Part shown: piece by piece, positions 1 through 27,127 of the stretch
How the letters are laid out: every line of letters begins with the position of its first letter
Numbering within the stretch: position 1 is the stretch's first letter
Source: Dehalococcoidia bacterium
GTDB taxonomy: Bacteria; Chloroflexota; Dehalococcoidia; Lucifugimonadales; Australimonadaceae
Reading direction: 5' to 3'
Assembly (NCBI GenBank): GCA_965116015.1
Contig: OZ220477.1
Span: forward strand, 711,940 to 775,939
DNA length: 64,000 bases
Position numbers and translations under genes: made by a program
The notes under the pieces: model-generated
Databases searched by the model: none
What the model was told of the DNA's origin: nothing
The model's input: the letters and a program-made list of their open reading frames with translations, nothing else

Positions 1-1387
1 CGCGCAGCGTCTCCAGCCTCTCGAACGTAACCTCGCCGATAACCCGAATGGCGAGCCCCGGACCCGGGAACGGCTGACGGTTCAGTATCTCCGGAGGCAG
101 TCCCAGCTCCGCGCCGGCCTCTCGCGCCTCATCCTTGAACAAGTAACGCAGCGGCTCCACCAGCTTCAGCTTCATCCGCTCCGGAAGACCGCCCACGTTG
201 TGATGCGTCTTGATCTTGTGCGACGCCGACGATTCCGCCGTCTGGCTCTCGATCACATCCGGATACAGCGTCCCCTGCGCCAGAAAATCCACCGCGCCCA
301 GCGCCCCCGCCTGCTCCTCGAACACGTTGATGAACTCCGCGCCGATAACCTTCCGCTTCCGCTCAGGATCGACCACTCCTCCAAGCGCCGTAAGGAACCG
401 CTCCGCAGCGTCGACGTACACCAGATTCAGCCCAATGTTGCGCTCGAACACATCGCGCACCCGCTCCGGCTCCTCCTTCCGCAGCAGCCCGTTGTTCACG
501 AAAATGCAGGTCAGCTGATCGCCCACCGCCTCATGAACAAGCTTCGCCGTAACCGCAGAGTCCACCCCGCCCGAAAGCGCGCAGATCACGCGCCCCTCTC
601 CCACCTGCTCCCGGATCCGCCGGATGCTCTCCGCAACGAAATTGCCGGGCGTCCACGCGCCCGACGCCCCGCACGCCCGGTACACGAAATTGCGCAGAAC
701 CCGCGCCCCTCGCGGCGTATGCGCCACCTCCGGGTGAAACTGAATCCCGTAAACCCCCGCGTCGTTCGCCATCGCCGCGATCGGCGAGTTCTCGCTGTAC
801 GCGATTGCGCGGAATCCGGGCGGGAGCGTGTCGATGCGGTCGCCGTGGCTCATCCACACCGGGCTTTCGTCGTCGATCCCGTCAAACAGCAGGCTCGACG
901 CGTTCCGGTGAATCACCGCGAACCCGTACTCGCGCTCCGTCGCGCGCGCAACCACCCCCCCAAGCTGATGCGCGATCAGCTGCATCCCGTAGCAGATCCC
1001 CAGCACCGGCACGTTCGCCTCGAATATCCACGGCTGCGCCAGCGGAGCCCCCTCTTCGTACACCGACGCCGGACCCCCCGAGAGAATGACGCCCTTCAGA
1101 TCGAGGCCAGCCGCAGCCTCGCGCGGAGCGTCCGGCGGAACGATCTCGCAGTACACGTTCTGCTCGCGGACGCGCCGCGCGATCAGCCGGCTGTACTGCG
1201 ACCCATAGTCGACGACAACGATAGCCTCCGCCCCAGCCCTGGCAGGCTCCGCGCCCCCGCCTCTCCCCCGAACGCCCTCCTGCTCCTGCGCGATTCCCAG
1301 ATACGTCGACACCTCGACATCGCCGCTCGTCGCGATCCGGCGCGACGGAGCGGCGGAGGCGGACTCTGGATGATGGTCGTCGGGCAT
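1..1387 (-). CDS. guaA: GMP synthase (glutamine-hydrolysing); C-terminus cut by the left window edge
   Basis: The reverse frame is open to position 1, so it is missing from the ORF track. My translation from the ATG at 1387 shows the GATase block [17 protein letters not shown], the ATP-PPase motif SGGVDS and the C-terminal [26 protein letters not shown]...[11 protein letters not shown]. Confidence 0.9.
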
Positions 1388-1502
1388 TCCTGTCTCTCGC
1401 CTGAGCGGGCATCCTCGCCAGCAGGTTCGCTGACGCGCGCAGAGCGCACAGAGGGCAACTAACGTAGCATCCAACGCCTGCTCGGTCAACGCGCCCCCGC
1501 GT

Positions 1503-1511
1503 TGGTATACT
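1503..1511 (+). promoter_or_regulatory. Candidate extended -10 promoter (TGgTATACT) for the tsaC-pgk-tpiA-miaA block
   Basis: TGGTATACT lies 27 nt upstream of the ATG at 1538, in the divergent gap from guaA. No clear -35 element. Confidence 0.3.
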
Positions 1512-1537
1512 CGGAGCCGCCGCGCGGTCGGCCAGCT

Positions 1538-2185
1538 ATGCCTCGCGTAACCGACAACCCCAACAACCGCTCCGTCGCCTCCATCCTGCTCCGCGAGAGC
1601 GGAGTCGTCGCTTACCCCACCGACACTGTCTACGGACTCGGCGCCGCCGTCTTCAACTACGCCGCTGTCTCCTCGCTGTTCGTCATCAAGGGACGCAGCC
1701 GCGACCAGGGCGTCCCCGTCCTCGTCGCCTCCGAATCCCAACTCCACGAAATCGCCTCCGAAGTCTCAGACGACGCCTACGCCCTCGCCAAAGCCTTCTG
1801 GCCCGGCGCGCTCACGCTCGTCGTGCCCCGCCGCCGCGACATCCCCGCCCTCGTCGCCGGCGGAAGCGAAACCATCGCTGTCCGCCTCCCCGACCACCCC
1901 TGCCCCCAGTCGCTCATCCAGGCCCTTGGCGCGCCGATAACCGGCACGAGCGCCAACCGCCACGACGGCCCGGAACCCACATCCGCCGGCGAAGTCCAGC
2001 GCCAGCTCGGCAACCGCCTCAGCCTCATCCTCGACGGCGGACCAAGCCCGCGATCCGTCCCCTCGACCATCGTCGACACAACCACCGCGCCCCCTAAAGT
2101 CCTCCGCCTCGGAGCCCTCACGCTTGAGGAGCTCCAGAGCGTCTGCGCCGTCGCCCCCCCAGACGCCTCCCCCGCAAGAGAGTAG
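1538..2185 (+). CDS. tsaC: L-threonylcarbamoyladenylate synthase (YrdC/TsaC/Sua5 family, short form)
   Basis: [16 protein letters not shown]..., [32 protein letters not shown] and PSTIVD are YrdC-domain hallmarks. I prefer the ATG at 1538 to the TTG at 1502. Confidence 0.8.
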
Positions 2186-2192
2186 CCCTCTT

Positions 2193-3239
2193 ATGCCTCA
2201 AGGCCGCCTCCCCGATTTCCTCGCCGCCCACGCCCCTCTCGTCGAGCGCGCCCTGCGCGCAAGCCTCGAACTCCCCGCCGACCCCAACCTCCCCCCTTAC
2301 CGGATGATGCGCTACCAGCTCGGATGGACCGACCAGATGGGCGAAGAGACCCCCTCTCAGCAACCCCGCCTGCTCGGAACGCTCTGCATCGAGGCCCACA
2401 ACTCGCTCTCCGCAAACAGCGCGGCCACTGCCGCCCCTGCGGCCGCAGCCATAGAACTCTTCCACGAATCCACCCGCGTCCACGAAGATATGCAGACCGC
2501 CGCGCAGCGCCGCGCAGGGCAGGACGCCGTCTGGTGGATCTGGGGCCCCGCGCAGGCCATCAACGTCGGCGACGGCCTGCACGCCATCGCCCTCTACACG
2601 CTTATGCAAGCGCAAGACGCGCTCGGAGCCTCCGCCGCTCTCGACGCCGCCGCAGCCCTCGACGCCGCAGCCCTCCAGTACTACGAAGGCCACTTCCTCG
2701 ACCTCCAGATGCAGGAGCGCGTCGACGTCTCCCAGGCCGAGTACCGCCGAATGGCCCGCTGCAAGCACGGATCGCTCTTCGGCGCCGCCCTCGCCCTCGG
2801 CGCAGTCTGCGCCGGCGCCCCCCCAGACGCCGTCGAGGCCTGGCGCAACATCGGCTCCGCGATCGGCGCCGGAGCCCTCATCTCCGCCGAAGCCCGCGTC
2901 TTCTGGGGCGACCCCGCCGAAGACCACGCCGAACGCGCCCTAAACAAAAGCAAGCTCTACCCCGTCGTCGCCGCGTTCGCACAGGCCAGCGTCGCCCAGA
3001 AACGCGCGCTCGGCGCCTACTACTTCAAGCGCGTCATCGAACCCAACGACCTCCACGCCATCCGCAGCATCCTCGACGACGCCGACGCCCGCGACAAAAC
3101 CAACCAGGCCATCGCAGCCGCCCAACTCGACGCCCTCAATGCCCTTAGCGCACTCAACGCCCTCCAAACCGCCGGCGTCGACCCCGGCGCGACGCGGCGC
3201 TGGGAAACAATCGTCTCCGCTTTGGTGAGCCAGCCATGA
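2193..3239 (+). CDS. Polyprenyl synthetase-family protein with degenerate Asp-rich motifs
   Basis: Family blocks RRAGQDAVWWIWGPAQAINVGDGLHAIA and YYEGHFLDLQ...YRRMARCKHGSLFGAALALGA are present. The first DDxxD position reads VHEDMQ and the second reads ISAEARVFWGD. The stop overlaps the pgk start (ATGA). Confidence 0.6.
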   Translation: MPQGRLPDFLAAHAPLVERALRASLELPADPNLPPYRMMRYQLGWTDQMGEETPSQQPRLLGTLCIEAHNSLSANSAATAAPAAAAIELFHESTRVHEDMQTAAQRRAGQDAVWWIWGPAQAINVGDGLHAIALYTLMQAQDALGASAALDAAAALDAAALQYYEGHFLDLQMQERVDVSQAEYRRMARCKHGSLFGAALALGAVCAGAPPDAVEAWRNIGSAIGAGALISAEARVFWGDPAEDHAERALNKSKLYPVVAAFAQASVAQKRALGAYYFKRVIEPNDLHAIRSILDDADARDKTNQAIAAAQLDALNALSALNALQTAGVDPGATRRWETIVSALVSQP

Positions 3240-4423
3240 CGAAAATGACCATCCGCGATATCGACTGGCGCGGCAAACGCGCCCTCCTCCGCGTCGACTT
3301 CAACGTCCCCTTCGAGCGCGGCTCCAACCGCATCTCCGACGACATCCGCATCCGCGAGTCCCTCCCCACCATCCGCCGCCTGCTCGACGCCGGAGCCTCC
3401 GTCGTGCTCTGCTCCCACCTCGGACGCCCCGGAGGCAAGCCCGACCCCAACCTCGAACTCCGACCCATCGCCGACCGCCTCTCCGAACTGCTCGGCTTCC
3501 GCGTCGCCTACGTCCACGACGCCCCCGGCGACGAGGCGCGGCAGGCGGCCGCCGCCCTCAATCCCGGCGACGTCCTCCTCATCGAGAACATCCGCTTCTG
3601 GCCCGGCGAAGAGGCGAACGACCCCGATTTCGCAGCCGCCCTCGCCGCCCTCGCCGACGTCTACGTCAACGACGCGTTCGGCGCCGCGCATCGCGCCCAC
3701 GCCTCCACCGAGGGCGTCGCCCGGCTCCTGCCAGCGGTCGCCGGCCTCCTTATGGAGAAAGAAGTCGCCTTCCTCGGCGGCGTCCTCCACAACCCCGAGC
3801 GCCCGCTCGCAGCCCTCCTCGGCGGCGCCAAGGTCAGCGATAAGCTCCAAACGCTCGAACGCCTCGTCGGCCACGCCGACGAGCTCTTCGTCGGCGGCGG
3901 AATGGCCGCAACCTTCCTCAAAGCCAAAGGCTGCGAAACCGGAACCTCCCTCATCGAGGAAAACCTCGTCCCCTTCTGCGCCGGAATCCTCGCCAGAGCC
4001 GAGGCCGCCGGCTCCCCCATCAACCTCCCCGCAGACGTCGTCGTCAGCGACAAGATCGAACCCTGCGCCAGCGCCGAGATCGCTCCCGCCAGCAGCGCCC
4101 CCGCCGGAATGATGATGCTCGACATCGGCCCCGACGCCGCCGCCGACTACGCCCGCCGGCTCGCCGCGATGGGCAGCGTCGTCTGGAACGGCCCTATGGG
4201 CGTGTTCGAGGTTCCCCCCTTCGACCGCGGAACGCGCGCCGTCGCAGAGGCTCTCGCCGCGAGCGCCGCCGTCACCGTCATCGGCGGCGGATCAACCGCC
4301 GAGGCCGTCGCCGCGCTCGGGCTCGGCGACAAGATGTCGCACGTGTCGACCGGCGGCGGCGCGTCCCTCGAATTCCTCGAAGGCAAAGAACTCCCCGGCG
4401 TCGCAGCCCTCAACGACAAGTAA
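3236..4423 (+). CDS. pgk: Phosphoglycerate kinase
   Basis: [20 protein letters not shown], full length 395 aa. Confidence 0.95.
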
Positions 4424-4448: not shown

Positions 4449-5219
4449 ATGCGAACTCCCCTCGTCGCAGGAAACTGGAAGATGAACCCCCCCGACATCG
4501 CAGCCGCCGTGCGCCTGGCCGCCGACGTCCGCGCCGCAGCGTCGAACATCGACGGCGCCGGCTGCGTCGTCTGTCCCCCGTTCGTCGCCCTGAGCGATGT
4601 CGCCGCCGCCTTGCGCGGCTCCAGCGTCGGCGTCGCCGCGCAGAATATGAACCCCGAACCGAAAGGCGCCTTCACCGGCGAGATCGCCGCCTCGATGCTC
4701 CAGGGACTCTGCAGCCGCGTCGTGCTTGGCCACTCCGAACGCCGCCATCTCCTCGGCGAGAGCGACGCGTTCATCAACGCCAAAGTGAAAGCCGCCCTCG
4801 ACGCGAACCTCATCCCCATCCTCTGCGTCGGCGAGACGCTCGACGAGCGCGAGGCGGGTAGGGCGGAAGCAGTCGTCGACGCCCAGATCCAGCGCGGACT
4901 CGACGCCGTCCCCGCAAGCTCCGTCGCCGGCGTCGTCATCGCCTACGAGCCCGTCTGGGCGATCGGAACAGGACGCGCCGCCACGCCGGACATCGCCCAA
5001 GCGATGATCGCCGCCGCCCGCCAGACGCTCCAGCGCGTCGCAGGCCCCGCCGCCGACGCGACGCGCATCCTCTACGGCGGAAGCGTAACCCCAGCCAACG
5101 CGCGCGACCTCGCCGCCCAGCCCGACATCGACGGCGCCCTCGTCGGAGGCGCAAGCCTCGTCGCCGCCGACTTCGTCGCCATCGTCCGGGCGTTCGCCGC
5201 CGCCGGCGCGTCCGCATAG
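4449..5219 (+). CDS. tpiA: Triosephosphate isomerase
   Basis: VAGNWKMN, LGHSERR, AYEPVWAIGTG, ILYGGSV. Confidence 0.95.
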   Translation: MRTPLVAGNWKMNPPDIAAAVRLAADVRAAASNIDGAGCVVCPPFVALSDVAAALRGSSVGVAAQNMNPEPKGAFTGEIAASMLQGLCSRVVLGHSERRHLLGESDAFINAKVKAALDANLIPILCVGETLDEREAGRAEAVVDAQIQRGLDAVPASSVAGVVIAYEPVWAIGTGRAATPDIAQAMIAAARQTLQRVAGPAADATRILYGGSVTPANARDLAAQPDIDGALVGGASLVAADFVAIVRAFAAAGASA

Positions 5220-5234
5220 CCCCGCGAGTTCCTG

Positions 5235-6152
5235 GTGGCCAGCCCGCTGCAGGCGCTCTTCATCGTCGGCCCCACCGCCAGCGGCAAAACAGCCGCCGCC
5301 GTCGAACTTGCCGGGCGCGCCCCCATCGAAATCATCAACGCCGACAGCCGCCAGATCTACCGCGGAATGTCCATCGGCTCCGCCAAGCCAACCCCCGCCG
5401 AACAGGCCGCCGCCGTCCACTGCCTCATCGACATCGCCGACCCGGACGAACCGTTCAGCCTCGGCGCGTTCCTCGCCCTCGCACGCGAGGCCATCGCCGG
5501 CGCCGCCTCGCGCGGGAGAATCCCCGTAGTCGTAGGAGGCTCCGGACAATACGTATGGGGGCTCGCGGAAGGATGGCGCCCGCCCCCCGCTCCCCCCGAC
5601 AACGCGCTGCGCCAGCAGCTGTACGCCCTCGCCCAGCGCGACGGCGCGGCGGCCCTCCACGACCGCCTCCGCGACCTCGACCCCGCCTCCGCCGACGCTA
5701 TCGACCCCCGCAACATCCGCCGCGTCGCCCGCGCAATCGAGGTCTGCAGCATCACCGGCAAACCCTTCTCGCAGCAGCGCCTCAGAGCAGACCCCGGATT
5801 CGTCCCCGTCATCCTCGGGCTGCGTCCCTCATCGCGCCAGGATCTCCAACAGCGCATCGACGCCCGCGTCGACGCAATGCTCGCCAGCGGCTGGCTCGAC
5901 GAGACCCGCGCGCTCCTCGACGCCGGATACTCCCCCGACCTGCCGTCGTTCTCCGCCGCCGGCTACCGCGAACTCGCCGCCTGCCTCAACGGCGAACTCA
6001 CCCTCGACGAAGCCGCCGCGCGAGCAAAGTTCGCCGCCCGCCGCCTCGCCCGCTACCAGGGCGCCTGGTTCAAAGAGCGCGACCCCCGCATCGACTGGAG
6101 CGCCGACCCCGCACGCATCGTCCAGCGCGCCCTCAGCATCATCCGCCCTTGA
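5235..6152 (+). CDS. miaA: tRNA dimethylallyltransferase
   Basis: GPTASGKT P-loop, IINADSRQIYRGMSIGSAKPT; GTG start. Confidence 0.9.
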   Translation: MASPLQALFIVGPTASGKTAAAVELAGRAPIEIINADSRQIYRGMSIGSAKPTPAEQAAAVHCLIDIADPDEPFSLGAFLALAREAIAGAASRGRIPVVVGGSGQYVWGLAEGWRPPPAPPDNALRQQLYALAQRDGAAALHDRLRDLDPASADAIDPRNIRRVARAIEVCSITGKPFSQQRLRADPGFVPVILGLRPSSRQDLQQRIDARVDAMLASGWLDETRALLDAGYSPDLPSFSAAGYRELAACLNGELTLDEAAARAKFAARRLARYQGAWFKERDPRIDWSADPARIVQRALSIIRP

Positions 6153-6395: not shown

Positions 6396-7070
6396 ATGGC
6401 AGGCTACCTCGACCCCAACGACCCCACCGTGCAAGCGTTCGCCGCACTCGGAACAACCCCCGTCAGCGACGCAATGGACCGCCTCGGCCTCATCGGCCAG
6501 TGCCTCGGCATCAAACCCGTCGACCGCGACTTCACCCTATGCGGACGCGCCCACACCGTCCGCAACGAACCGATGACCGCCGGACACAAAGGCGAGAGCG
6601 TCGGCGACTACATCGACGAAGTCAAACCCGGCGAAATCGTCGTCATCGACAACGGCGGACGCCTCGACGCCACCGTCTGGGGCGACATCCTCACCATTAT
6701 GGCTAACCGCAACAACCTCGGCGGCACCGTGATCCACGGCGTCTGCCGAGACTCCAACCGCGCCCTCAAACTCAGCTACCCCATCTTCTCCCGCGGAACC
6801 TACATGCGAACCGGCAAAGACCGCGTCCGCGCCGACGCCTACCAAGAGCCAGTCTCGCTCGGCGAAGTCCGCGTCCTCCCCGGCGACCTCCTCCTCGGCG
6901 ACGGCGACGGCGTCCTAGTCGTAGCCCGCGAGCACGAAGAGGCCGTCCTCAAAGCCGCCCAGGAGATCGACGCCGCCGAAGAGCGGATCCGCAACGAAAT
7001 CCTCCAGGGCAGCCGCCTCGACGCTGCCCGTCAGAAATTCCAGTACCACAGCCTCCAAAGCCGCGCATAG
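6396..7070 (+). CDS. RraA-family protein / 4-hydroxy-4-methyl-2-oxoglutarate (CHA) aldolase-like
   Basis: PVSDAMDRLG, GRLDATVWGDILT, GTVIHGVCRD and GDLLLGDGDGVLVV are typical of RraA/HMG aldolases. ATG at 6396 follows AGCAGGTGA. The upstream part of ORF 6246.. lies inside the miaA repeat and is not credible coding sequence. Confidence 0.7.
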   Translation: MAGYLDPNDPTVQAFAALGTTPVSDAMDRLGLIGQCLGIKPVDRDFTLCGRAHTVRNEPMTAGHKGESVGDYIDEVKPGEIVVIDNGGRLDATVWGDILTIMANRNNLGGTVIHGVCRDSNRALKLSYPIFSRGTYMRTGKDRVRADAYQEPVSLGEVRVLPGDLLLGDGDGVLVVAREHEEAVLKAAQEIDAAEERIRNEILQGSRLDAARQKFQYHSLQSRA

Positions 7071-7082
7071 GGAGCGCGCGTA

Positions 7083-7835
7083 GTGGCAACGCCTGAGAAC
7101 GACATTAGCGCAAACGATATGGCCCCACCTGAGAATGACGCAGGAGCACAAGAGGTAGTCGCGCCCCAGAGCGATCAAAGCACGGTTACCCAAAGGGACG
7201 ATTCGAGAGGAATCGTCTACATTCTGACGAACGCGGCTATGACCGGGTACATCAAGATTGGGAAGACCAAGGGCACTTCCTCAAGGGACGTGCAGGATCG
7301 TATGCGCGAGCTCTATTCGTCGCCGAGTTCGAGTGGCGTCCCTAGACCTTTCGATTGCTACTACGCGGCAGTAGTCGCAGACCGCCATACGGTTGAGAAG
7401 AAGCTGCACACCATATTCAGTGACTACCGAATCAACCCCAAACGAGAATTCTTCGAGCGCGTCCCGCTCGCCAGCGCGAGAGCCGCTCTGGAGCTAGTCG
7501 CAGAGGTGGATGTAACGCCTAGGGAAATGAGTGAAGGCGAAGAGGAGGGGGATATTAAGCCTCCCAAACTTCCCCATTTCAAATTTCAGAAATACGGCAT
7601 ACCGAAAGGAGCAACGTTGGTGTTCGTGCGAGACAACACCGTAACCTGCACAGTAGAAGACAGCAATAGAAATGTGAAGGACAGCGAAGGAGAAGTCACC
7701 ACACTCTCTCCCTTGACGCAGAAACTCTTGGGTTGGCGCCGGGCGCCATCTGGGGCCGACTACTGGCTGTATGGCGACGAAACCCTAGCCGACTTGCGCA
7801 GAAGGCTAGACGAGGAAGACGCCAACAGAGAGTAG
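7083..7835 (+). CDS. GIY-YIG-like T5orf172 (MUG113) domain protein with a C-terminal DUF4357/RAMA-like domain; low-GC single-gene island
   Basis: GIVYILTN....GYIKIGKT...R..EL and FSDYRINPKREFF match the T5orf172 pattern as I recall it. The C-terminal FKFQKYGIPKGATLVF...TVTC..V......GEVTTLSPLTQKLLGW...GADYW resembles the restriction/methylase-associated RAMA fold. The start may be ATG 7119 rather than GTG 7083. Confidence 0.65.
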   Translation: MATPENDISANDMAPPENDAGAQEVVAPQSDQSTVTQRDDSRGIVYILTNAAMTGYIKIGKTKGTSSRDVQDRMRELYSSPSSSGVPRPFDCYYAAVVADRHTVEKKLHTIFSDYRINPKREFFERVPLASARAALELVAEVDVTPREMSEGEEEGDIKPPKLPHFKFQKYGIPKGATLVFVRDNTVTCTVEDSNRNVKDSEGEVTTLSPLTQKLLGWRRAPSGADYWLYGDETLADLRRRLDEEDANRE

Positions 7836-7929
7836 CCCACTCCCCCCGCCCCTTGACCGCCCGCCTGACCCCCCGCTACCGTTGCGTGCGCAACGCGCCT
7901 AACCCCATCCCGCCGGAGGAGCTCTCGCT

Positions 7930-9042
7930 ATGCAAACTGCAATCCCCTGCGTGTTTATGCGCGGCGGAACATCACGCGGCCCTTACTTCCTCGCCTCAGA
8001 CCTCCCCGACGACCCCGAAACCCGCGACAAGGTGCTCCTCGCCGTTATGGGTTCCCCCGACGACCGCCAGATCGACGGCCTCGGCGGCGCCGACCCCCTC
8101 ACCAGCAAAGTCGCCATCGTCGGACCCCCCACCCGCGACGACTGCGACGTCGACTACCTCTTCGCCCAAGTCGTCGTCAACGAACCCGTCGTCGACGTCA
8201 GCCCCAACTGCGGCAATATGCTCGCCGGCGTCGGCCCCTTCGCCATCGAGCATGGCCTCATCCCCGCCCAGCAGAACGAAACCGTCGTCCGCATCCATAT
8301 GGTCAACTCCGGCGACAGAGCCATCGCCCGCGTCGCTACCCCAGGCGGCCAGGTCGAATACCAGGGCGACGCCCGCATCGACGGCGTTCCCGGATCCGCC
8401 GCCCCCATTATGATCGACGTCGAAGACACCGCCGGCTCCTTCTGCGGCGCCCTCTTCCCCACCGGCAACCGCATCGACGTCATCGACGGCGTCGAATGCT
8501 CTCTGATGGACAACGGAATGCCCATCGTCGCGATGCGCGCCGCCGACCTCAACCGCACCGGCTACGAATCCCGAGACGCCCTCAACGCCGACGCCGAACT
8601 GAAAGAGCGCATCGAGAGCATCCGCCTGCAAGCCGGCCATCTTATGAACCTCGGCGACGTAACCGACAACGTCGTCCCCAAGATGTTCCTCCTCGCCCCG
8701 CCCGTCGCCGGAGGCGCCCTCTGCACCCGCTCCTTCATCCCCAAAGTCGCCCACGCCTCCATCGGAGTCCTCGCAGCCCTCACCGTCGCCACCGCCGCCG
8801 TCTTCCCCGGAACAACCGCCTACAGCCTCGCCGTCCGCCCTGAGGGCAAACGCAAGATGCTCCTGCTCGAACACCCCACCGGCGACTACGGCGTCGAGAT
8901 CGAACTCGGCGGCGCAGACGCCGAACCCTTCATCGAACGCGCCGCTATGCTCCGCACCGCCCGCAAGCTTATGGAGGGCGCCGTCTACGTCCCCGCCAGC
9001 GTCTGGGAAGGCAACCGCGCCCTCGCCGAGGCCACAGCCTAA
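7930..9042 (+). CDS. PrpF-family isomerase (4-oxalomesaconate tautomerase / methylaconitate isomerase-like)
   Basis: IPCVFMRGGTSRGPYF, GSPDDRQIDGLGG, TSKVAIV and SPNCGNMLAGVGPFA are PrpF/GalD hallmarks. Confidence 0.75.
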   Translation: MQTAIPCVFMRGGTSRGPYFLASDLPDDPETRDKVLLAVMGSPDDRQIDGLGGADPLTSKVAIVGPPTRDDCDVDYLFAQVVVNEPVVDVSPNCGNMLAGVGPFAIEHGLIPAQQNETVVRIHMVNSGDRAIARVATPGGQVEYQGDARIDGVPGSAAPIMIDVEDTAGSFCGALFPTGNRIDVIDGVECSLMDNGMPIVAMRAADLNRTGYESRDALNADAELKERIESIRLQAGHLMNLGDVTDNVVPKMFLLAPPVAGGALCTRSFIPKVAHASIGVLAALTVATAAVFPGTTAYSLAVRPEGKRKMLLLEHPTGDYGVEIELGGADAEPFIERAAMLRTARKLMEGAVYVPASVWEGNRALAEATA

Positions 9043-23689: not shown

Positions 23690-23956
23690 TCAGCCGTAGC
23701 CGCGCGTGCTGTGCACTCTGATATTTGTCACATTAGTCGCAATAGCTCTGCTAATGGAATACAGAATCGCGTGCGGGCCGCGCGAATACAAATAAAGAAC
23801 CACTGGAGGGCGCAGAAAGGAAACCACTCGTTTCCCGTCAGGCCACGGCGACCTGAGTATGTCATCAAGACAGTCGAGTATCTCTTCAGCTCCATCGCCT
23901 CCTGCGGCGGCAAGCTCGGCCTCAGCGGTCGAGCTAAGCGACAGAGTGTTTGCCAT
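23690..23956 (-). CDS. Hypothetical 88-aa protein; candidate toxin partner of the Panacea-domain protein
   Basis: ATG at 23956 overlaps the upstream gene's end by 23 nt. Reduced-GC segment. No family recognised. The alternative frame 23728..23913 cannot be excluded. Confidence 0.25.
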   Translation of the reverse strand: MANTLSLSSTAEAELAAAGGDGAEEILDCLDDILRSPWPDGKRVVSFLRPPVVLYLYSRGPHAILYSISRAIATNVTNIRVHSTRGYG

Positions 23957-24536
23957 ACTTGGCGCGCGCCTCCTCAAGCGAAATGCCCTTGCCGCCCGCC
24001 GCGAAGTACGCCAGCGACTCATCGATGCGCTCAAACAGCCCAGGAGTTGAAAGCGCCTGTTTCACACGATCTCTTATCTCGGGATTCTGGCGCAATTCAA
24101 GCGCCGCGCCCCGTTCGGCTCCTCGCATCGGCAGCGTCTCTTTCGAAGCTCGAACAACATTCGGTGTGCTCTCTCGTCCGTATCGCTTGACGATAGCATT
24201 GATAAACTGCCAATCGTCTGCATCGAGCGGCAAATCGGCGCTGTCGAATCCCTTAGCTACGCAATACTGATAGGTAGCGTTGCCGTTTGGCAGCGCCCTT
24301 TGAGCCATCCGAACTTTCCCCTGAGACTCCAATGAAGCAAGAGACCTAACGATGCCGTTGCCCGCGGCATTCGGGCCGTAATTGTCCCACCGGTAACTGA
24401 AATCGCTAAGCTGGTCTCCCAGGTGCTCCGCTCTCAAGTTGTCAACCAGGTAAACCAGCTTGACCAGCTTTGTCCTGCCTGTGTCGCGCTTAAGCTGGCG
24501 CAACAGCCCAAGTATGACTGCCTCATTGCGCGTCAT
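23934..24536 (-). CDS. Panacea-domain (DUF4065, SocA-like) putative antitoxin
   Basis: N-terminal RTKLVKLVYLVD...FSYRWDNYGPN matches the DUF4065 pattern (K-L-x-K-L-x-Y, W..GP) as I recall it. Reduced GC. Confidence 0.55.
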   Translation of the reverse strand: MTRNEAVILGLLRQLKRDTGRTKLVKLVYLVDNLRAEHLGDQLSDFSYRWDNYGPNAAGNGIVRSLASLESQGKVRMAQRALPNGNATYQYCVAKGFDSADLPLDADDWQFINAIVKRYGRESTPNVVRASKETLPMRGAERGAALELRQNPEIRDRVKQALSTPGLFERIDESLAYFAAGGKGISLEEARAKYGKHSVA

Positions 24537-24665
24537 AGCTCGCTCTCCTCTTAGCTCAAACTCAGGACGCTGCGAAATGCTCCTAAGCGCCCGCCTCCAG
24601 CTTGCTTGACGTACAAGATAGCGCCCTAGGCCAGGCGGCTACTGATGCCGCTTCCCTAGAAGAGC

Positions 24666-24694
24666 ATCTTACACCACGCCTTGACAGGGGTCAA
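24666..24694 (-). promoter_or_regulatory. Candidate promoter TTGACC-17-TAAGAT for the Panacea operon
   Basis: Reverse strand: TTGACC cctgtcaaggcgtggtg TAAGAT, about 125 nt upstream of ATG 24536. The -35 lies inside the palindrome TTGACaggGGTCAA. Confidence 0.45.
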
Positions 24695-24930
24695 TGCGAG
24701 CCCGGCGAACAGACTTCAACCGGAGCGCTGCGCCCTCGCCGCCTACCACGCCTGGGACTCCCCGAACCCCGATCCGCCGGCGCCCTCGGACGCGCTTCCC
24801 AGCACGGCAAGGCCGCGTGCTCTCCGCTCGTGGATTGCGGCGCGGTCGCGGGGCTCTACCCGCCCACAGGACAGAGCAGCGACCACCCCTCTCGAAGCGA
24901 GGCGGGGTTATCCCGGACAGAAGCGCCCCG

Positions 24931-24962
24931 GGCGGGAGTCCGGCGCGCGCCGAACTCCCGCC
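24931..24962. repeat. GC palindrome 1 (ggcgggagtccggcg/cgccgaactcccgcc, one mismatch) directly after the DUF4258 stop
   Basis: 32-nt inverted repeat 12 nt downstream of the stop at 24974. Same family as those at 25544 and 26661. Confidence 0.8.
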
Positions 24963-24973
24963 GGATGGACGCC

Positions 24974-25312
24974 CTACCTCCTCCTGCGCCGCCTGCGCCC
25001 GCTCGGCCCTCTATACCGCCTTAAACGATGCGCCACAGTAACAACTTTCCCGCCACGCCCCACAATCACGTAAGCGTTCAGACGGTCAACTATGCGCCTG
25101 TACCCCGCCAGACCCAGCGCCCGTTTCGCTCGAAGCCGCGCGCAACGGTCCATCTCGTACCTAAAGGCGCCCTTCCGCGCCCCAATCTCCTTGCCGAACT
25201 CAAGCAGCGCATAAACGACCTCGCGCCCGATCCCTCTACTGTTGCGCCGACGCTCAGCGTGCCTTGAAAACCGGCAGGCTATTCGATCATTCCACCCACT
25301 GCTCTGTGACAT
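24974..25312 (-). CDS. DUF4258-family protein (putative BECR-fold RNase toxin), intact copy
   Basis: MSQSSGWNDRIACRFSRHAERRRNSRGIGREVV...YVIVGRGGKVVTVAHRL. The F-S-x-H-A-x-x-R....RGI block and the C-terminal V-I-T-V pattern fit DUF4258 as I recall it. GGAGAG RBS. Confidence 0.65.
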   Translation of the reverse strand: MSQSSGWNDRIACRFSRHAERRRNSRGIGREVVYALLEFGKEIGARKGAFRYEMDRCARLRAKRALGLAGYRRIVDRLNAYVIVGRGGKVVTVAHRLRRYRGPSGRRRRRRR

Positions 25313-25543
25313 CTTGCGCTCTCCTAAGCTCTGTTCCCGCGCTTCGTTACCTCTCGCAGAACACTCGCCAACATCACGGATAACCGAACATAGCGCTCTC
25401 CTTTCGTTGCGCCTCGCCGCCCCGCTCCCGGCGCAATCACAGCCTGAACAACCGCGCCAGGCCAACCCCGAACGCGTCCATCGCCATAACCGCTCTCAAC
25501 CGCGCTCGCGCAAGCGGGTAGGGCAGCGCTGGACGAGAGTCCC
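25313..25543 (-). repeat. Conserved leader L, copy B (~230 nt), between the palindrome and the DUF4258 start
   Basis: About 80% identical by eye to 26420-26660. Contains a mini-ORF, ATG TTC GGT TAT CCG TGA (25374-25391), behind GAAAGGAG. Confidence 0.8.
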
Positions 25544-25575
25544 GGCAGGGAGTCCGGCGCGCCGGACTCCCTGCC
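25544..25575. repeat. GC palindrome 2: perfect 32-nt palindrome ggcagggagtccggcgcgccggactccctgcc
   Basis: Perfect 16+16 inverted repeat read directly from the sequence. Confidence 0.9.
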
Positions 25576-25586
25576 ATATGGACGCC

Positions 25587-25833
25587 CTACCTCCTTCTGC
25601 GCCGCCTCAAACGATCCCCTGGTTTGGATTACCGGGCCTCGATATCGGAGAACGCGGCGGGCGATTAGGGCGGGAATCCTGCGCAAGCATGGCTCCCACT
25701 CGGCATGCCGCCTACTTCTTTTCCTTCTATGCCGCTTCATCTCGCGATTATCCCCTCTACTGTTGCGCCGGCTCCTGGCGCACCCTGAAAACTGACATCC
25801 TATTCGATTGTTCCATCCATCGCTCTGTGACAT
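25587..25833 (-). pseudogene. Decayed DUF4258 copy (5' ~85 nt and 3' ~35 nt retained, centre replaced)
   Basis: It starts MSQSDGWNNRIGCQFSGCARSRRNSRG, then unrelated sequence follows. The 3' end atcgtttgaggcgg...tag realigns with the intact copies but in a different frame, so the six-frame ORF runs on to 25324. Confidence 0.55.
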
Positions 25834-25888
25834 CTCGCGTCTCTCCTCAAGCTCTTTGCCCGTCACTAAACTGTTGTATGGCATATCC

Positions 25889-26296
25889 CTATTGCTCTTC
25901 ATTCTCTGAATCCTCTCCTCTCGCGCTTCGCCGCCTCTTCAACGCATCGCTAACAGCGGCCTCGCGCTCTTCCTCGCTCATCCAAGCAAGCTCCTCAGCC
26001 CGCTCGATGCTGACGCGGCCCGCGCGCTCCATCGAACGGATGGCGACGCCAAAAGACTTCATCAATGCGTCGAGCTGGCCAGTCAGCAAGAGCTTGACCG
26101 GCGAATCCTCTATCCTGGCCAGAGACTCCGCCATACGCCAAACCATCGCTTTAACAGCCGGCTGAACGACGCCTCTCGCCGCCAGCATCGCCGCCGAGAG
26201 CTCAGCAGGCGTCGCCACATGCTCCTTCCCTTCACCATCCACGTACACCATCAGATTAAACTTGTCTCTCATCGAAACCTTCCTTCCTGCATCCAT
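25889..26296 (-). CDS. Hypothetical protein X (135 aa from MDAGRKVSMRDKF...), family unknown
   Basis: GGAGGAGG RBS before ATG 26296, with a second in-frame ATG at 26272. It is in frame with the upstream DUF4258 5' fragment, which gives the 176-aa ORF 25889..26419. Acidic C-terminal tail. Confidence 0.4.
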   Translation of the reverse strand: MDAGRKVSMRDKFNLMVYVDGEGKEHVATPAELSAAMLAARGVVQPAVKAMVWRMAESLARIEDSPVKLLLTGQLDALMKSFGVAIRSMERAGRVSIERAEELAWMSEEEREAAVSDALKRRRSARGEDSENEEQ

Positions 26297-26322
26297 ATTC
26301 CTCCTCCCGAACCTGGCTGCGA

Positions 26323-26419
26323 CAGCATCGCGACTAATTCTCCTACCGCTGCGCCGACTCTCCGCGTGCCCTGAAAACCGACGCCCTATTCGATTGTTCC
26401 GTCCATTGTTCTGTTCCAT
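26323..26419 (-). pseudogene. DUF4258 5' fragment (MEQNNGRNNRIGRRFSGHAESRRSGRRIS) fused in frame to gene X
   Basis: It aligns to the first ~30 codons of the intact copies and breaks at about the same codon as the 25833 fragment. Confidence 0.5.
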
Positions 26420-26660
26420 CTGTGTCGCTCCCTAAGCTCTATTCCCGCGCTTCACTACCGCCTCGCGGAACCAACTCGCCGACATCACGGATAACCAGAC
26501 ATAACTCCTCCTTTCACCGCGCCTCGCTGCGCCGTCCCCGACGCAATCGCAGCCCGAACAAACGCGCCACGCCGAGCCCCGAACGCGCGCCACCGCCGTA
26601 ACCGCCCCAAACCATGCTCGCGAGAGCGGGCAGGGGGGTAGGCAAGAGGCGAAAGCCCCC
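26420..26660 (-). repeat. Conserved leader L, copy C (~240 nt)
   Basis: Aligns with 25313-25543. Mini-ORF ATG TCT GGT TAT CCG TGA at 26485-26502 behind AAAGGAGG. Confidence 0.8.
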
Positions 26661-26691
26661 GTAGGGAGTCCGGCGCGGCTGGACTCCCTAC
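26661..26691. repeat. GC palindrome 3 (gtagggagtcc-ggcgcggct-ggactccctac)
   Basis: 11-bp stems and a 9-nt loop, 10 nt downstream of the stop at 26702. Confidence 0.85.
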
Positions 26692-26701
26692 CAATGGCGC
26701 C

Positions 26702-27016
26702 CTATCTCCTCTTATGCCGCCTCAAACGATGCGCCACAGTGATGACATTCCCATCACGCGATACAACAACATAAACGTTGAGCCGGTCAGCGATGCGCCT
26801 GTAGTCCGCCGAGCCGAGCGCTTGCTCCACGCGAATCCGCGACGAACGATCCAGCGCGTACGCGAAGGCGCCTTCCCGAGTCCTGGTCTTCTTGCCAAAT
26901 CTGAGCAGCACGTCAACAACGGCCGATCCAATGCCTCTACTGTTGCACCGACGCTCAGCGTGCGCTGAAAACTGACGATCTACTACCCTGTTGTTCTGTT
27001 CATTGTGTGAGGTCAA
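26702..27016 (-). CDS. DUF4258-family protein, intact copy (start uncertain)
   Basis: ...NEQNNRVVDRQFSAHAERRCNSRGIGSAVV...YVVVSRDGNVITVAHRLRRHKRR. A TTG at 27016 sits 10 nt after AAGGAG. The maximal ORF extends to the GTG at 27109, which lies inside the leader's SD and is unlikely to be the start. Confidence 0.6.
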   Translation of the reverse strand: MTSHNEQNNRVVDRQFSAHAERRCNSRGIGSAVVDVLLRFGKKTRTREGAFAYALDRSSRIRVEQALGSADYRRIADRLNVYVVVSRDGNVITVAHRLRRHKRR

Positions 27017-27039
27017 GTCCGCATGGCTCCTTGGTGCTT

Positions 27040-27127
27040 GCTCTTGCGCTAGCTCTCCCGTGGAACAACTCACGAACGACACGAACAGCCTGACATACCC
27101 TCCTTTCACCTCACGCCCTGCTCGCGC
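27040..27127 (-). repeat. Partial leader L, copy D (3' ~90 nt only), with a variant mini-ORF
   Basis: ggtgaaaggagggtatgtcaggctgttcgtg... aligns with the SD/mini-ORF part of copies B and C. The mini-ORF here is MSGCSCRS (27071-27097). Confidence 0.6.

Follow-up and report, generated by a model that had tools for sequence, protein, structure and literature searches.

A stretch of 64,000 nucleotides (nt) from a Dehalococcoidia bacterium (assembly GCA_965116015.1, contig OZ220477.1, positions 711,940 to 775,939; the whole stretch is called the window here) contains two overlapping genes, at positions 23690 to 24536, that probably form a toxin-antitoxin (TA) module of the PanAT type. The first encodes a Panacea-domain protein of 200 amino acids (aa) and the second an 88-aa protein whose predicted fold is that of the RelE/ParE toxins. 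In the interpretation that we favour, the Panacea protein directly binds and silences the RelE/ParE-fold partner, which itself probably acts non-catalytically. An earlier inspection of the letters and open reading frames (ORFs), referred to as the sequence-only reading, had proposed a DUF4065/Panacea antitoxin with an overlapping 88-aa partner that could be a new toxin family. The features of the locus are as follows.

Positions 23934-24536, minus strand: panA-like gene, 200 aa, with ATG at 24536 and TAG at 23934-23936.
Positions 23690-23956 including the stop codon, minus strand: panT-like gene, 88 aa, with ATG at 23954-23956 and TGA at 23690-23692.
Positions 24545-24550, minus strand: Shine-Dalgarno-like GAGGAG read from the sequence, 8 nt 5' of the ATG of the 200-aa gene.
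Positions 23969-23975, minus strand: Shine-Dalgarno-like GAGGAGG in the LEE codons at the 3' end of panA, 12 nt 5' of the partner ATG.
Positions 24666-24694, minus strand: candidate sigma-70-like promoter with the motif TTGACC-17 nt-TAAGAT, some 130 nt upstream of panA.

The Panacea assignment was checked against the Pfam profile SocA_Panacea (PF13274). The 200-aa protein aligns to profile positions 1-106 of 113 with E=2e-4 and a score of 22.7 bits, which is lower than the gathering cut-off of 25.7. In a search of 5.8 billion protein clusters, 24 homologues with 28-51% identity were recovered besides the window's own protein; a precomputed PF13274 match exists for 21 of these 24, the window's own protein being excluded from the count. 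When the aligned family members were scanned individually, 25/25 matched PF13274 at E<=0.01 (best 4.4e-11). Because all members match, Panacea membership is secure at the family level despite the sub-threshold score of the window sequence, and the DUF4065/Panacea assignment of the sequence-only reading is upheld. The Panacea (DUF4065) core is located at about residues 24-131. Within it G54-P55 is invariant in the family; Asn occupies the third position (N56, conserved to at least 90%), so that the motif reads YGPNA, with GPN and not GPV. The 'GPV' signature of Panacea is described as critical for neutralisation (Kurata et al. 2022, PMC8832971), and the invariant G54-P55 would correspond to the GP of that signature.

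A helical C-terminal extension of about 50 residues ends in the motif ISLEEARAKYG. The AlphaFold2 (AF2) model of the 200-aa protein has a predicted local distance difference test score (pLDDT) of 91 and consists of the core and three C-terminal helices, over which the score falls to 84, 74 and 52. No N-terminal helix-turn-helix (HTH) or other DNA-binding domain was detected in this protein, no solved Panacea structure was retrieved by sequence or fold search, and neither the 200-aa nor the 88-aa protein had a significant match in PADLOC, PHROGs or NCBIfam. Residues ~60-125 of the 200-aa protein have a weak, repeated similarity to PadR-like winged-helix transcription regulators (profile against PDB, E 0.004-0.05), and Foldseek aligned the model to Pex and PadR with probability up to 1.0 and a template modelling (TM) score of only ~0.3 on the query.

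The 88-aa ORF is a conserved gene. Eight genome loci and 42 metagenome loci were collected, the latter in a metagenome scan with the PanA alignment, and the partner was sought by iterated profile search in all six reading frames of every locus (loci are numbered L001 onwards). Among 53 unique loci the partner is found in 45, in tandem in 39 and convergent in 6; it is absent from the remaining 8, two of which are cut by a contig end. In the tandem loci it overlaps the Panacea gene or lies within a few tens of nt of it. The first loci examined have partner homologues of 86, 85, 90 and 98 residues directly 3' of the Panacea gene, and a further copy, uncalled and with a TTG start, is present in L010. 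Homologues in this position share 20-47% identity. Nucleotide differences between the partners of L001 and L011 are distributed 6/3/15 over the three codon positions, and this preference for the third position indicates purifying selection in the partner frame. Conservation, codon-position bias and the confident fold described below rule out a spurious ORF, and the choice of the 88-aa ORF as partner made in the sequence-only reading is borne out by its adjacency to the Panacea gene in 45/53 loci. The alternative 61-aa frame named in the same reading is conserved nowhere (best E 0.78) and was discarded. The ORF can also be called in a 114-aa version with a TTG start; this version was rejected, as homologues align from the internal ATG (MAN.. 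versus MPN..) and the Shine-Dalgarno sequence sits there. No identical entry for the 88-aa protein was present in the public protein collections searched, nor was there a self-match in the 5.8-billion protein index, so the gene is unannotated in the source genome.

The two reading frames share 23 nt (23934-23956). A GGAGGA element is also present 12-14 nt 5' of the partner start in L001, L003 and L011. The overlap and the internal Shine-Dalgarno sequence suggest that translation of panA and of the partner is coupled. Wherever gene calls were available the flanking genes differ between loci, so the pair behaves as a mobile two-gene module. An MmeI-type restriction-modification enzyme (23-3601) adjoins it in L001, DDE transposases (5185-6142 and 8315-8615) in L003, and a CRISPR Cse1 fragment with relaxase and TrwB-like conjugation genes (1-2970, 6912-8603) in L010. 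All eight loci from the genome collection belong to Dehalococcoidia (Chloroflexota) metagenome-assembled genomes (MAGs), and the family was seen only in Dehalococcoidia-type MAGs and metagenomes.

The sequence-only reading could not assign the 88-aa ORF to a family, and sequence comparison agrees: searches of Pfam, NCBIfam, PHROGs, PADLOC and PDB sequences gave no match, and a Pfam scan of the window partner that included PF05016 ParE_toxin gave nothing at E<=10. When 1.84 billion cluster representatives were scanned exhaustively with phmmer, 9 hits came back, and 7 of them are credible relatives, full-length or partial. Ten relatives were recovered from the larger protein index by profile search, and none by a metagenome scan with a partner alignment. 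The AF2 model of the 88-aa protein, built from an 11-sequence alignment, has a pLDDT of 90.3 and a predicted TM score (pTM) of 0.79, and is made up of a strand at the N-terminus, a long segment of helix and an antiparallel set of four strands. The top 13 Foldseek matches in the PDB are nearly all RelE, YoeB, ParE, PrpT or HigB toxins with TM 0.6-0.72. They include the following.

Archaeal RelE (aRelE), 1wmi_A: E=4e-4, TM 0.70.
Mycobacterium tuberculosis RelE1, 9g12: TM 0.72.
Further RelE chains: Thermus (T. thermophilus) RelE 2khe, M. tuberculosis RelE2 3g5o and E. coli RelE 4fxe.
Other toxins of the superfamily: YoeB 7v6w, PrpT 7ycs, ParE 5ceg and HigB 5ycl.

Profile comparisons point in the same direction at lower significance. 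A 36-sequence partner profile placed 1wmi first in the PDB, collinear over residues 1-85, and 6 of its 10 best PDB matches are RelE-family chains (1wmi, 2khe, 9g12 and the E. coli RelE chains 4fxe, 4v7j and 2kc8), all at sub-significant values (E 0.1-1.2). The best match in a viral library is a RelE-like 'cytotoxic translational repressor'. Pfam ParE_toxin is matched by 1/36 family members (E=0.004), and hhalign of the partner with E. coli RelE gave E=0.019 and a probability of 2.5%. The partner therefore has the RelE/ParE fold in its model, and none of the superfamily's sequence models matches it significantly. On the modelled structure, it is a remote and highly divergent member of the RelE/ParE superfamily and not a new fold. 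The suggestion of a new toxin family stands as far as the sequence is concerned, there being no Pfam, NCBIfam or PDB match, but not for the structure: the ORF folds confidently, as the sequence-only reading had asked to be examined, and the fold is that of RelE/ParE toxins at TM ~0.7. As a sequence family the partner is new and very rare; by its fold it belongs to a known toxin superfamily and is not a new type of toxin.

The position of the partner gene is itself informative. In the most divergent of the related loci, a gene for a protein of ~125 aa comes right after the Panacea gene, at a gap of 0 nt.

L060, 1586-1984: PemK/MazF partner (PF02452, E=2.5e-7, above cut-off).
L061, 899-1288: PemK/MazF partner (PF02452, E=9.9e-6, above cut-off).
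L059, 843-1238, and L062, ~3010-3428: PemK/MazF-like partners, by visible sequence similarity to those of L060 and L061.

In L063 there is yet another partner, Cys-rich, 126 aa long and without a Pfam match. Because sister loci hold a PemK/MazF toxin there, the downstream slot is read as a toxin slot. Judged by these matches, RelE-like and PemK partners are swapped within one narrow PanA lineage. Partner swapping is a defining trait of Panacea antitoxins (PMC8832971).

The Panacea protein's C-terminal extension differs with the partner. A ..LEEL.A.Y.. motif (..ISLEELKA.Y..) is found in most PanAs with a RelE-like partner and is absent from the PemK-partnered PanAs. In Panacea proteins the element that neutralises can lie in helices appended at the C-terminus (Ernits et al. 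2023, PMC10440598). Taken together, the division of the motif by partner type and these appended helices suggest that the extension binds the partner. A consistent complementarity of charge between PanA and partner was considered and ruled out, given that the isoelectric point (pI) of PanA ranges from 5.0 to 9.6 across the family.

The mechanism that we propose is as follows. The locus would be a chromosomal, horizontally acquired two-gene PanAT module, a type II TA system with a Panacea antitoxin. The 200-aa protein would serve as a stand-alone Panacea-domain antitoxin without an N-terminal HTH, and the 88-aa protein as its cognate partner in the toxin slot, presumably translationally coupled to it. 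We infer that the Panacea protein binds the small partner directly and keeps it inactive; direct binding is the way in which PanA neutralises (Kurata et al. 2022, PMC8832971). The C-terminal helices of PanA at residues ~150-195 (motif ISLEEL-KA-YG) would most likely do the binding, much as RelB, ParD and Phd wrap their C-terminal tails around their toxins. Were the antitoxin lost or triggered, the partner would be freed and growth arrest would follow.

Several observations weigh against a PanAT module, and the first of these concern the residues of the partner. The conserved columns are L30, Y32, I33, P37, P39, D40, G41, P51 and Y57, so that conservation falls on the hydrophobic core, on prolines and on an exposed (H)PEPDG loop. 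Neither the sheet nor the C-terminus of the family has a conserved Lys, Arg, His or Glu column. The catalytic residues of E. coli RelE are K52, K54, R61, R81 and Y87. With a reference sequence that was verified as identical to chain y of 4v7k, the equivalents of these residues, mapped by sequence alignment and not by structural superposition, are variable in the partner family; by the same mapping the R61-equivalent column holds W/R/K/H/D/E/A, with Ala or His in the window protein. The window clade ends directly after the last strand, without the basic C-terminal tail of related clades. In the tail-bearing partners (L034, L042, L044, L046, L047, L049, L053-L055 and L057) the conserved tail reads NIG..(E)(K/R)P.(I/L).RR and the median pI is 7.7. 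The tail-less group to which the window protein belongs is mostly acidic, with a median pI of 5.0 and 6.0 for the window protein, compared to 9.7 for E. coli RelE, and this acidity is atypical for RelE-type toxins. The basic tail may be a functional, perhaps catalytic, element that the window clade has lost. Because catalytic residues are missing and the group is acidic and tail-less, a non-catalytic target, such as ParE-like binding and poisoning of a protein, is likelier than RelE-like cleavage of mRNA.

The remaining observations of this kind concern the genes and their expression. The Pfam score of the window's own Panacea protein falls short of the cut-off, as noted above. In six unique loci the two genes lie tail to tail on opposite strands (L009 4001-4873, L014, L027, L028, L048 and L050; L021, L022 and L052 are duplicates of convergent loci), with stop codons -6 to +6 nt apart. 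The genes cannot be co-transcribed there, so co-transcription is not obligatory. This order is unusual and atypical for type II TA operons. Two partners have decayed: that of L005 (4613-4856) is missing its N-terminal third and has no ATG, GTG or TTG start, and that of L019 (5515-5827) is split by a frameshift. The Panacea protein of L005 (P0015) is also without a precomputed Pfam match. The TTGACC-17-TAAGAT promoter proposed in the sequence-only reading is present on the minus strand at 24694-24666 with 9/12 consensus matches, but it is a weak candidate, as the region contains 1 such site against 0.4 expected in shuffles. No operator-like palindrome was found upstream of panA. Finally, Kurata et al. 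2022 (PMC8832971) report 8 predicted PanTs that showed no toxicity in E. coli.

Three other explanations of the pair are each unlikely, and a fourth is far less likely still. According to the first, the module is a canonical one of the RelE type, in which the 88-aa protein is a ribosome-dependent mRNA endonuclease (RelE/YoeB-like) neutralised by the Panacea protein. It can draw on the best structural and profile matches, which are RelE proteins (1wmi, 2khe, M. tuberculosis RelE1/2 and E. coli RelE), on the ..TRGYG at the end of the window protein, which resembles the R-G-x-x-Y of the aRelE C-terminus, and on the basic tail NIG..(K/R)P.IRR of related clades. However, the residues equivalent to the catalytic ones of E. 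coli RelE are not conserved in the family in the sequence alignment (no superposition is implied), the terminal R..Y is absent from the closest relatives, which end in ..AAAAVL, ..LGIF or ..AIAGG, and the tail-less group is acidic (median pI 5.0). We regard an endonuclease of this type as improbable.

The lack of conserved polar catalytic residues could equally be taken as a sign of decay. The partner would then be a domesticated or degenerating remnant that is no longer toxic, and the pair would be kept as a non-toxic complex or be in the course of loss. Consistent with this are the tail-less, acidic state of the group beside its tail-bearing, more basic relatives, the decaying partners of L005 (start and N-terminal part gone) and L019 (frameshifted), and the great rarity of the family, for which 1.84 billion representatives yielded 9 hits, 7 of them credible. 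Most of the 45 loci with the partner nevertheless have its ORF intact, and the third-position-biased substitution, the confident fold and the conserved (H)PEPDG surface loop argue for continuing selection. A remnant is therefore a doubtful account of the locus.

The same features leave some room, at a similarly low probability, for a partner that acts unlike any known RelE/ParE protein, whether as an effector with a new mechanism, a non-toxic decoy or a sensor-binding module built on the RelE scaffold. If this were true, the conserved, exposed (H)PEPDG loop would be the functional site and the recurrent convergent order would mean that the pair works without operon-type coupling, for example as a Chloroflexota-specific, Panacea-sensed defence switch. 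Least likely by far is a regulatory pair that is not a TA system at all, in which the Panacea protein, with a core that resembles a PadR-like winged helix, would bind either DNA or a cue from a phage and be modulated by the small protein: the weak PadR-like similarity of residues ~60-125 (E 0.004-0.05; Foldseek TM 0.3), the convergent order in 6 loci, which makes operon-type regulation dispensable, the restriction-modification or CRISPR genes that adjoin some loci and the sensory role proposed for Panacea (Ernits et al. 2023, PMC10440598) can be cited for it, yet the winged-helix similarity is weak, no operator was found, PADLOC gave no significant match, the partner has a classic toxin fold and a bona fide PemK toxin occupies the same slot in sister clades.

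A PanAT module thus remains the preferred account, and as such it can be compared to known systems. In SocAB of Caulobacter crescentus, a type VI system, the Panacea-domain protein SocA serves ClpXP as an adaptor for the SocB toxin, and SocB is a DnaN-binding inhibitor of replication that is unrelated to RelE/ParE. The window pair shares with SocAB the SocA-like Panacea domain in the upstream protein and the adjacency of the genes; nothing in it points to protease-adaptor action. For most PanAs, neutralisation was found to need neither ClpXP nor Lon (Kurata et al. 2022, PMC8832971).

The closest described systems are the PanAT pairs. Kurata et al. 2022 (PMC8832971) predicted 1,268 of them, with toxin domains that include MqsR, ParE and PemK. 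Dataset S1 of that study contains clusters (T14, T28 and others) with HHpred matches to HigB-2, YoeB/ParE and RelE, and in its RelE/ParE-type clusters the antitoxin gene precedes the toxin gene, the overlaps ranging from -4 to -17 nt. Since pairs of Panacea with RelE/ParE-like proteins have been catalogued computationally in this way (PMC8832971, Dataset S1), the window pair belongs to an already described kind. Among the pairs validated by experiment in Table 1 of the same study there is no RelE/ParE-type PanT (Kurata et al. 2022, PMC8832971). By the pair criterion of Kurata et al. 2022 the locus qualifies as a candidate PanAT pair through its 23-nt overlap, adjacency in 45/53 loci and unrelated flanks wherever genes were called. 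As in the closest clusters, T14 and T28, a stand-alone ('noNTD') Panacea gene comes first and a small, overlapping partner with a RelE/ParE-type fold follows. The two-gene architecture is likewise kept across genomic contexts, and partners are swapped (PemK in L060-L061 and, by similarity, in L059 and L062). In contrast to the catalogued pairs, the partner here is a separate sequence family and the signature is GPN instead of GPV. The window clade also differs in being acidic, tail-less and without catalytic residues, some lineages are convergent, and the genome loci are all from Dehalococcoidia MAGs.

With RelBE, YefM-YoeB and ParDE (1wmi, 4fxe, 9g12, 5ceg) the pair shares the toxin fold (N-terminal strand, helical segment and antiparallel sheet in ~85-95 residues, TM 0.6-0.72), the antitoxin gene in first position, overlapping frames and a flexible, helical C-terminal region of the antitoxin. 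It differs from them in that the antitoxin is Panacea and not RelB, YefM, ParD or Phd. Furthermore, neither the RelE catalytic residues nor a ParE-type C-terminal region, which the ParE-type gyrase poisons need for their toxicity, is present, the partner is acidic instead of basic, and no N-terminal DNA-binding domain or operator was detected.

The present evidence leaves knowledge of TA biology unchanged. What it adds is an unannotated gene and a rare sequence family for the catalogue of Panacea-associated toxins, and another case of a RelE/ParE fold beneath the reach of sequence models. Two features deserve the attention of specialists, the loss of all RelE catalytic signatures in a partner that is still conserved and the recurrent convergent order. 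Should the partner be toxic despite its lack of RelE catalytic residues, it would offer a compact model for non-canonical activity of the RelE/ParE fold. The tandem and convergent variants constitute a natural test of the need for co-transcription in PanAT.

The pair is situated in DNA of unusual composition. Its GC content is 0.564, compared to a mean of 0.662 for the window, which places it in the lowest 0.6% of equal-sized windows and confirms the reduced-GC segment of the sequence-only reading. The GC content at third codon positions is 0.64 and 0.56 in the two genes of the pair and 0.76-0.84 in the neighbouring cupin and GNAT genes. The pair forms one end of a low-GC island of ~4 kilobases (kb), at about 23.6-27.5 kb, and DUF4258-like modules in a repeated array make up the rest of it. 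On one flank of the island lie genes for a cupin, a GNAT protein and an ornithine cyclodeaminase, on the other a 3-hydroxyisobutyrate-dehydrogenase-like gene and a gene for a molybdopterin oxidoreductase. The genes checked immediately beside the island are metabolic, with no integrase or transposase among them, and no tRNA genes were found in the window; hence no integrase or transposase marks the edges of the island.

Positions 24900-27110, minus strand: DUF4258-like module array, directly upstream of the Panacea pair.

The array shares the low GC content of the pair over its whole length. Two of its ORFs, 24974-25465 and 26702-27109, have a common 260-nt repeat (73% identity) with the motif FS.HAERR.NSRGI. 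Two other copies, 25324-25902 and 25889-26419, keep the N-terminal motif and then diverge, and look degenerate or fused. An upstream DUF4258 array had been part of the sequence-only reading; the array is a genuine repeated one, but its Pfam DUF4258 matches are sub-threshold (E 0.007 and 0.013). Apart from the Panacea island, which spans 23.6-27.8 kb by this measure, the window has a single further low-GC stretch of this sort, at ~6850-8050, where the GC content is at most 0.58 in 844-nt windows against the mean of 0.662.

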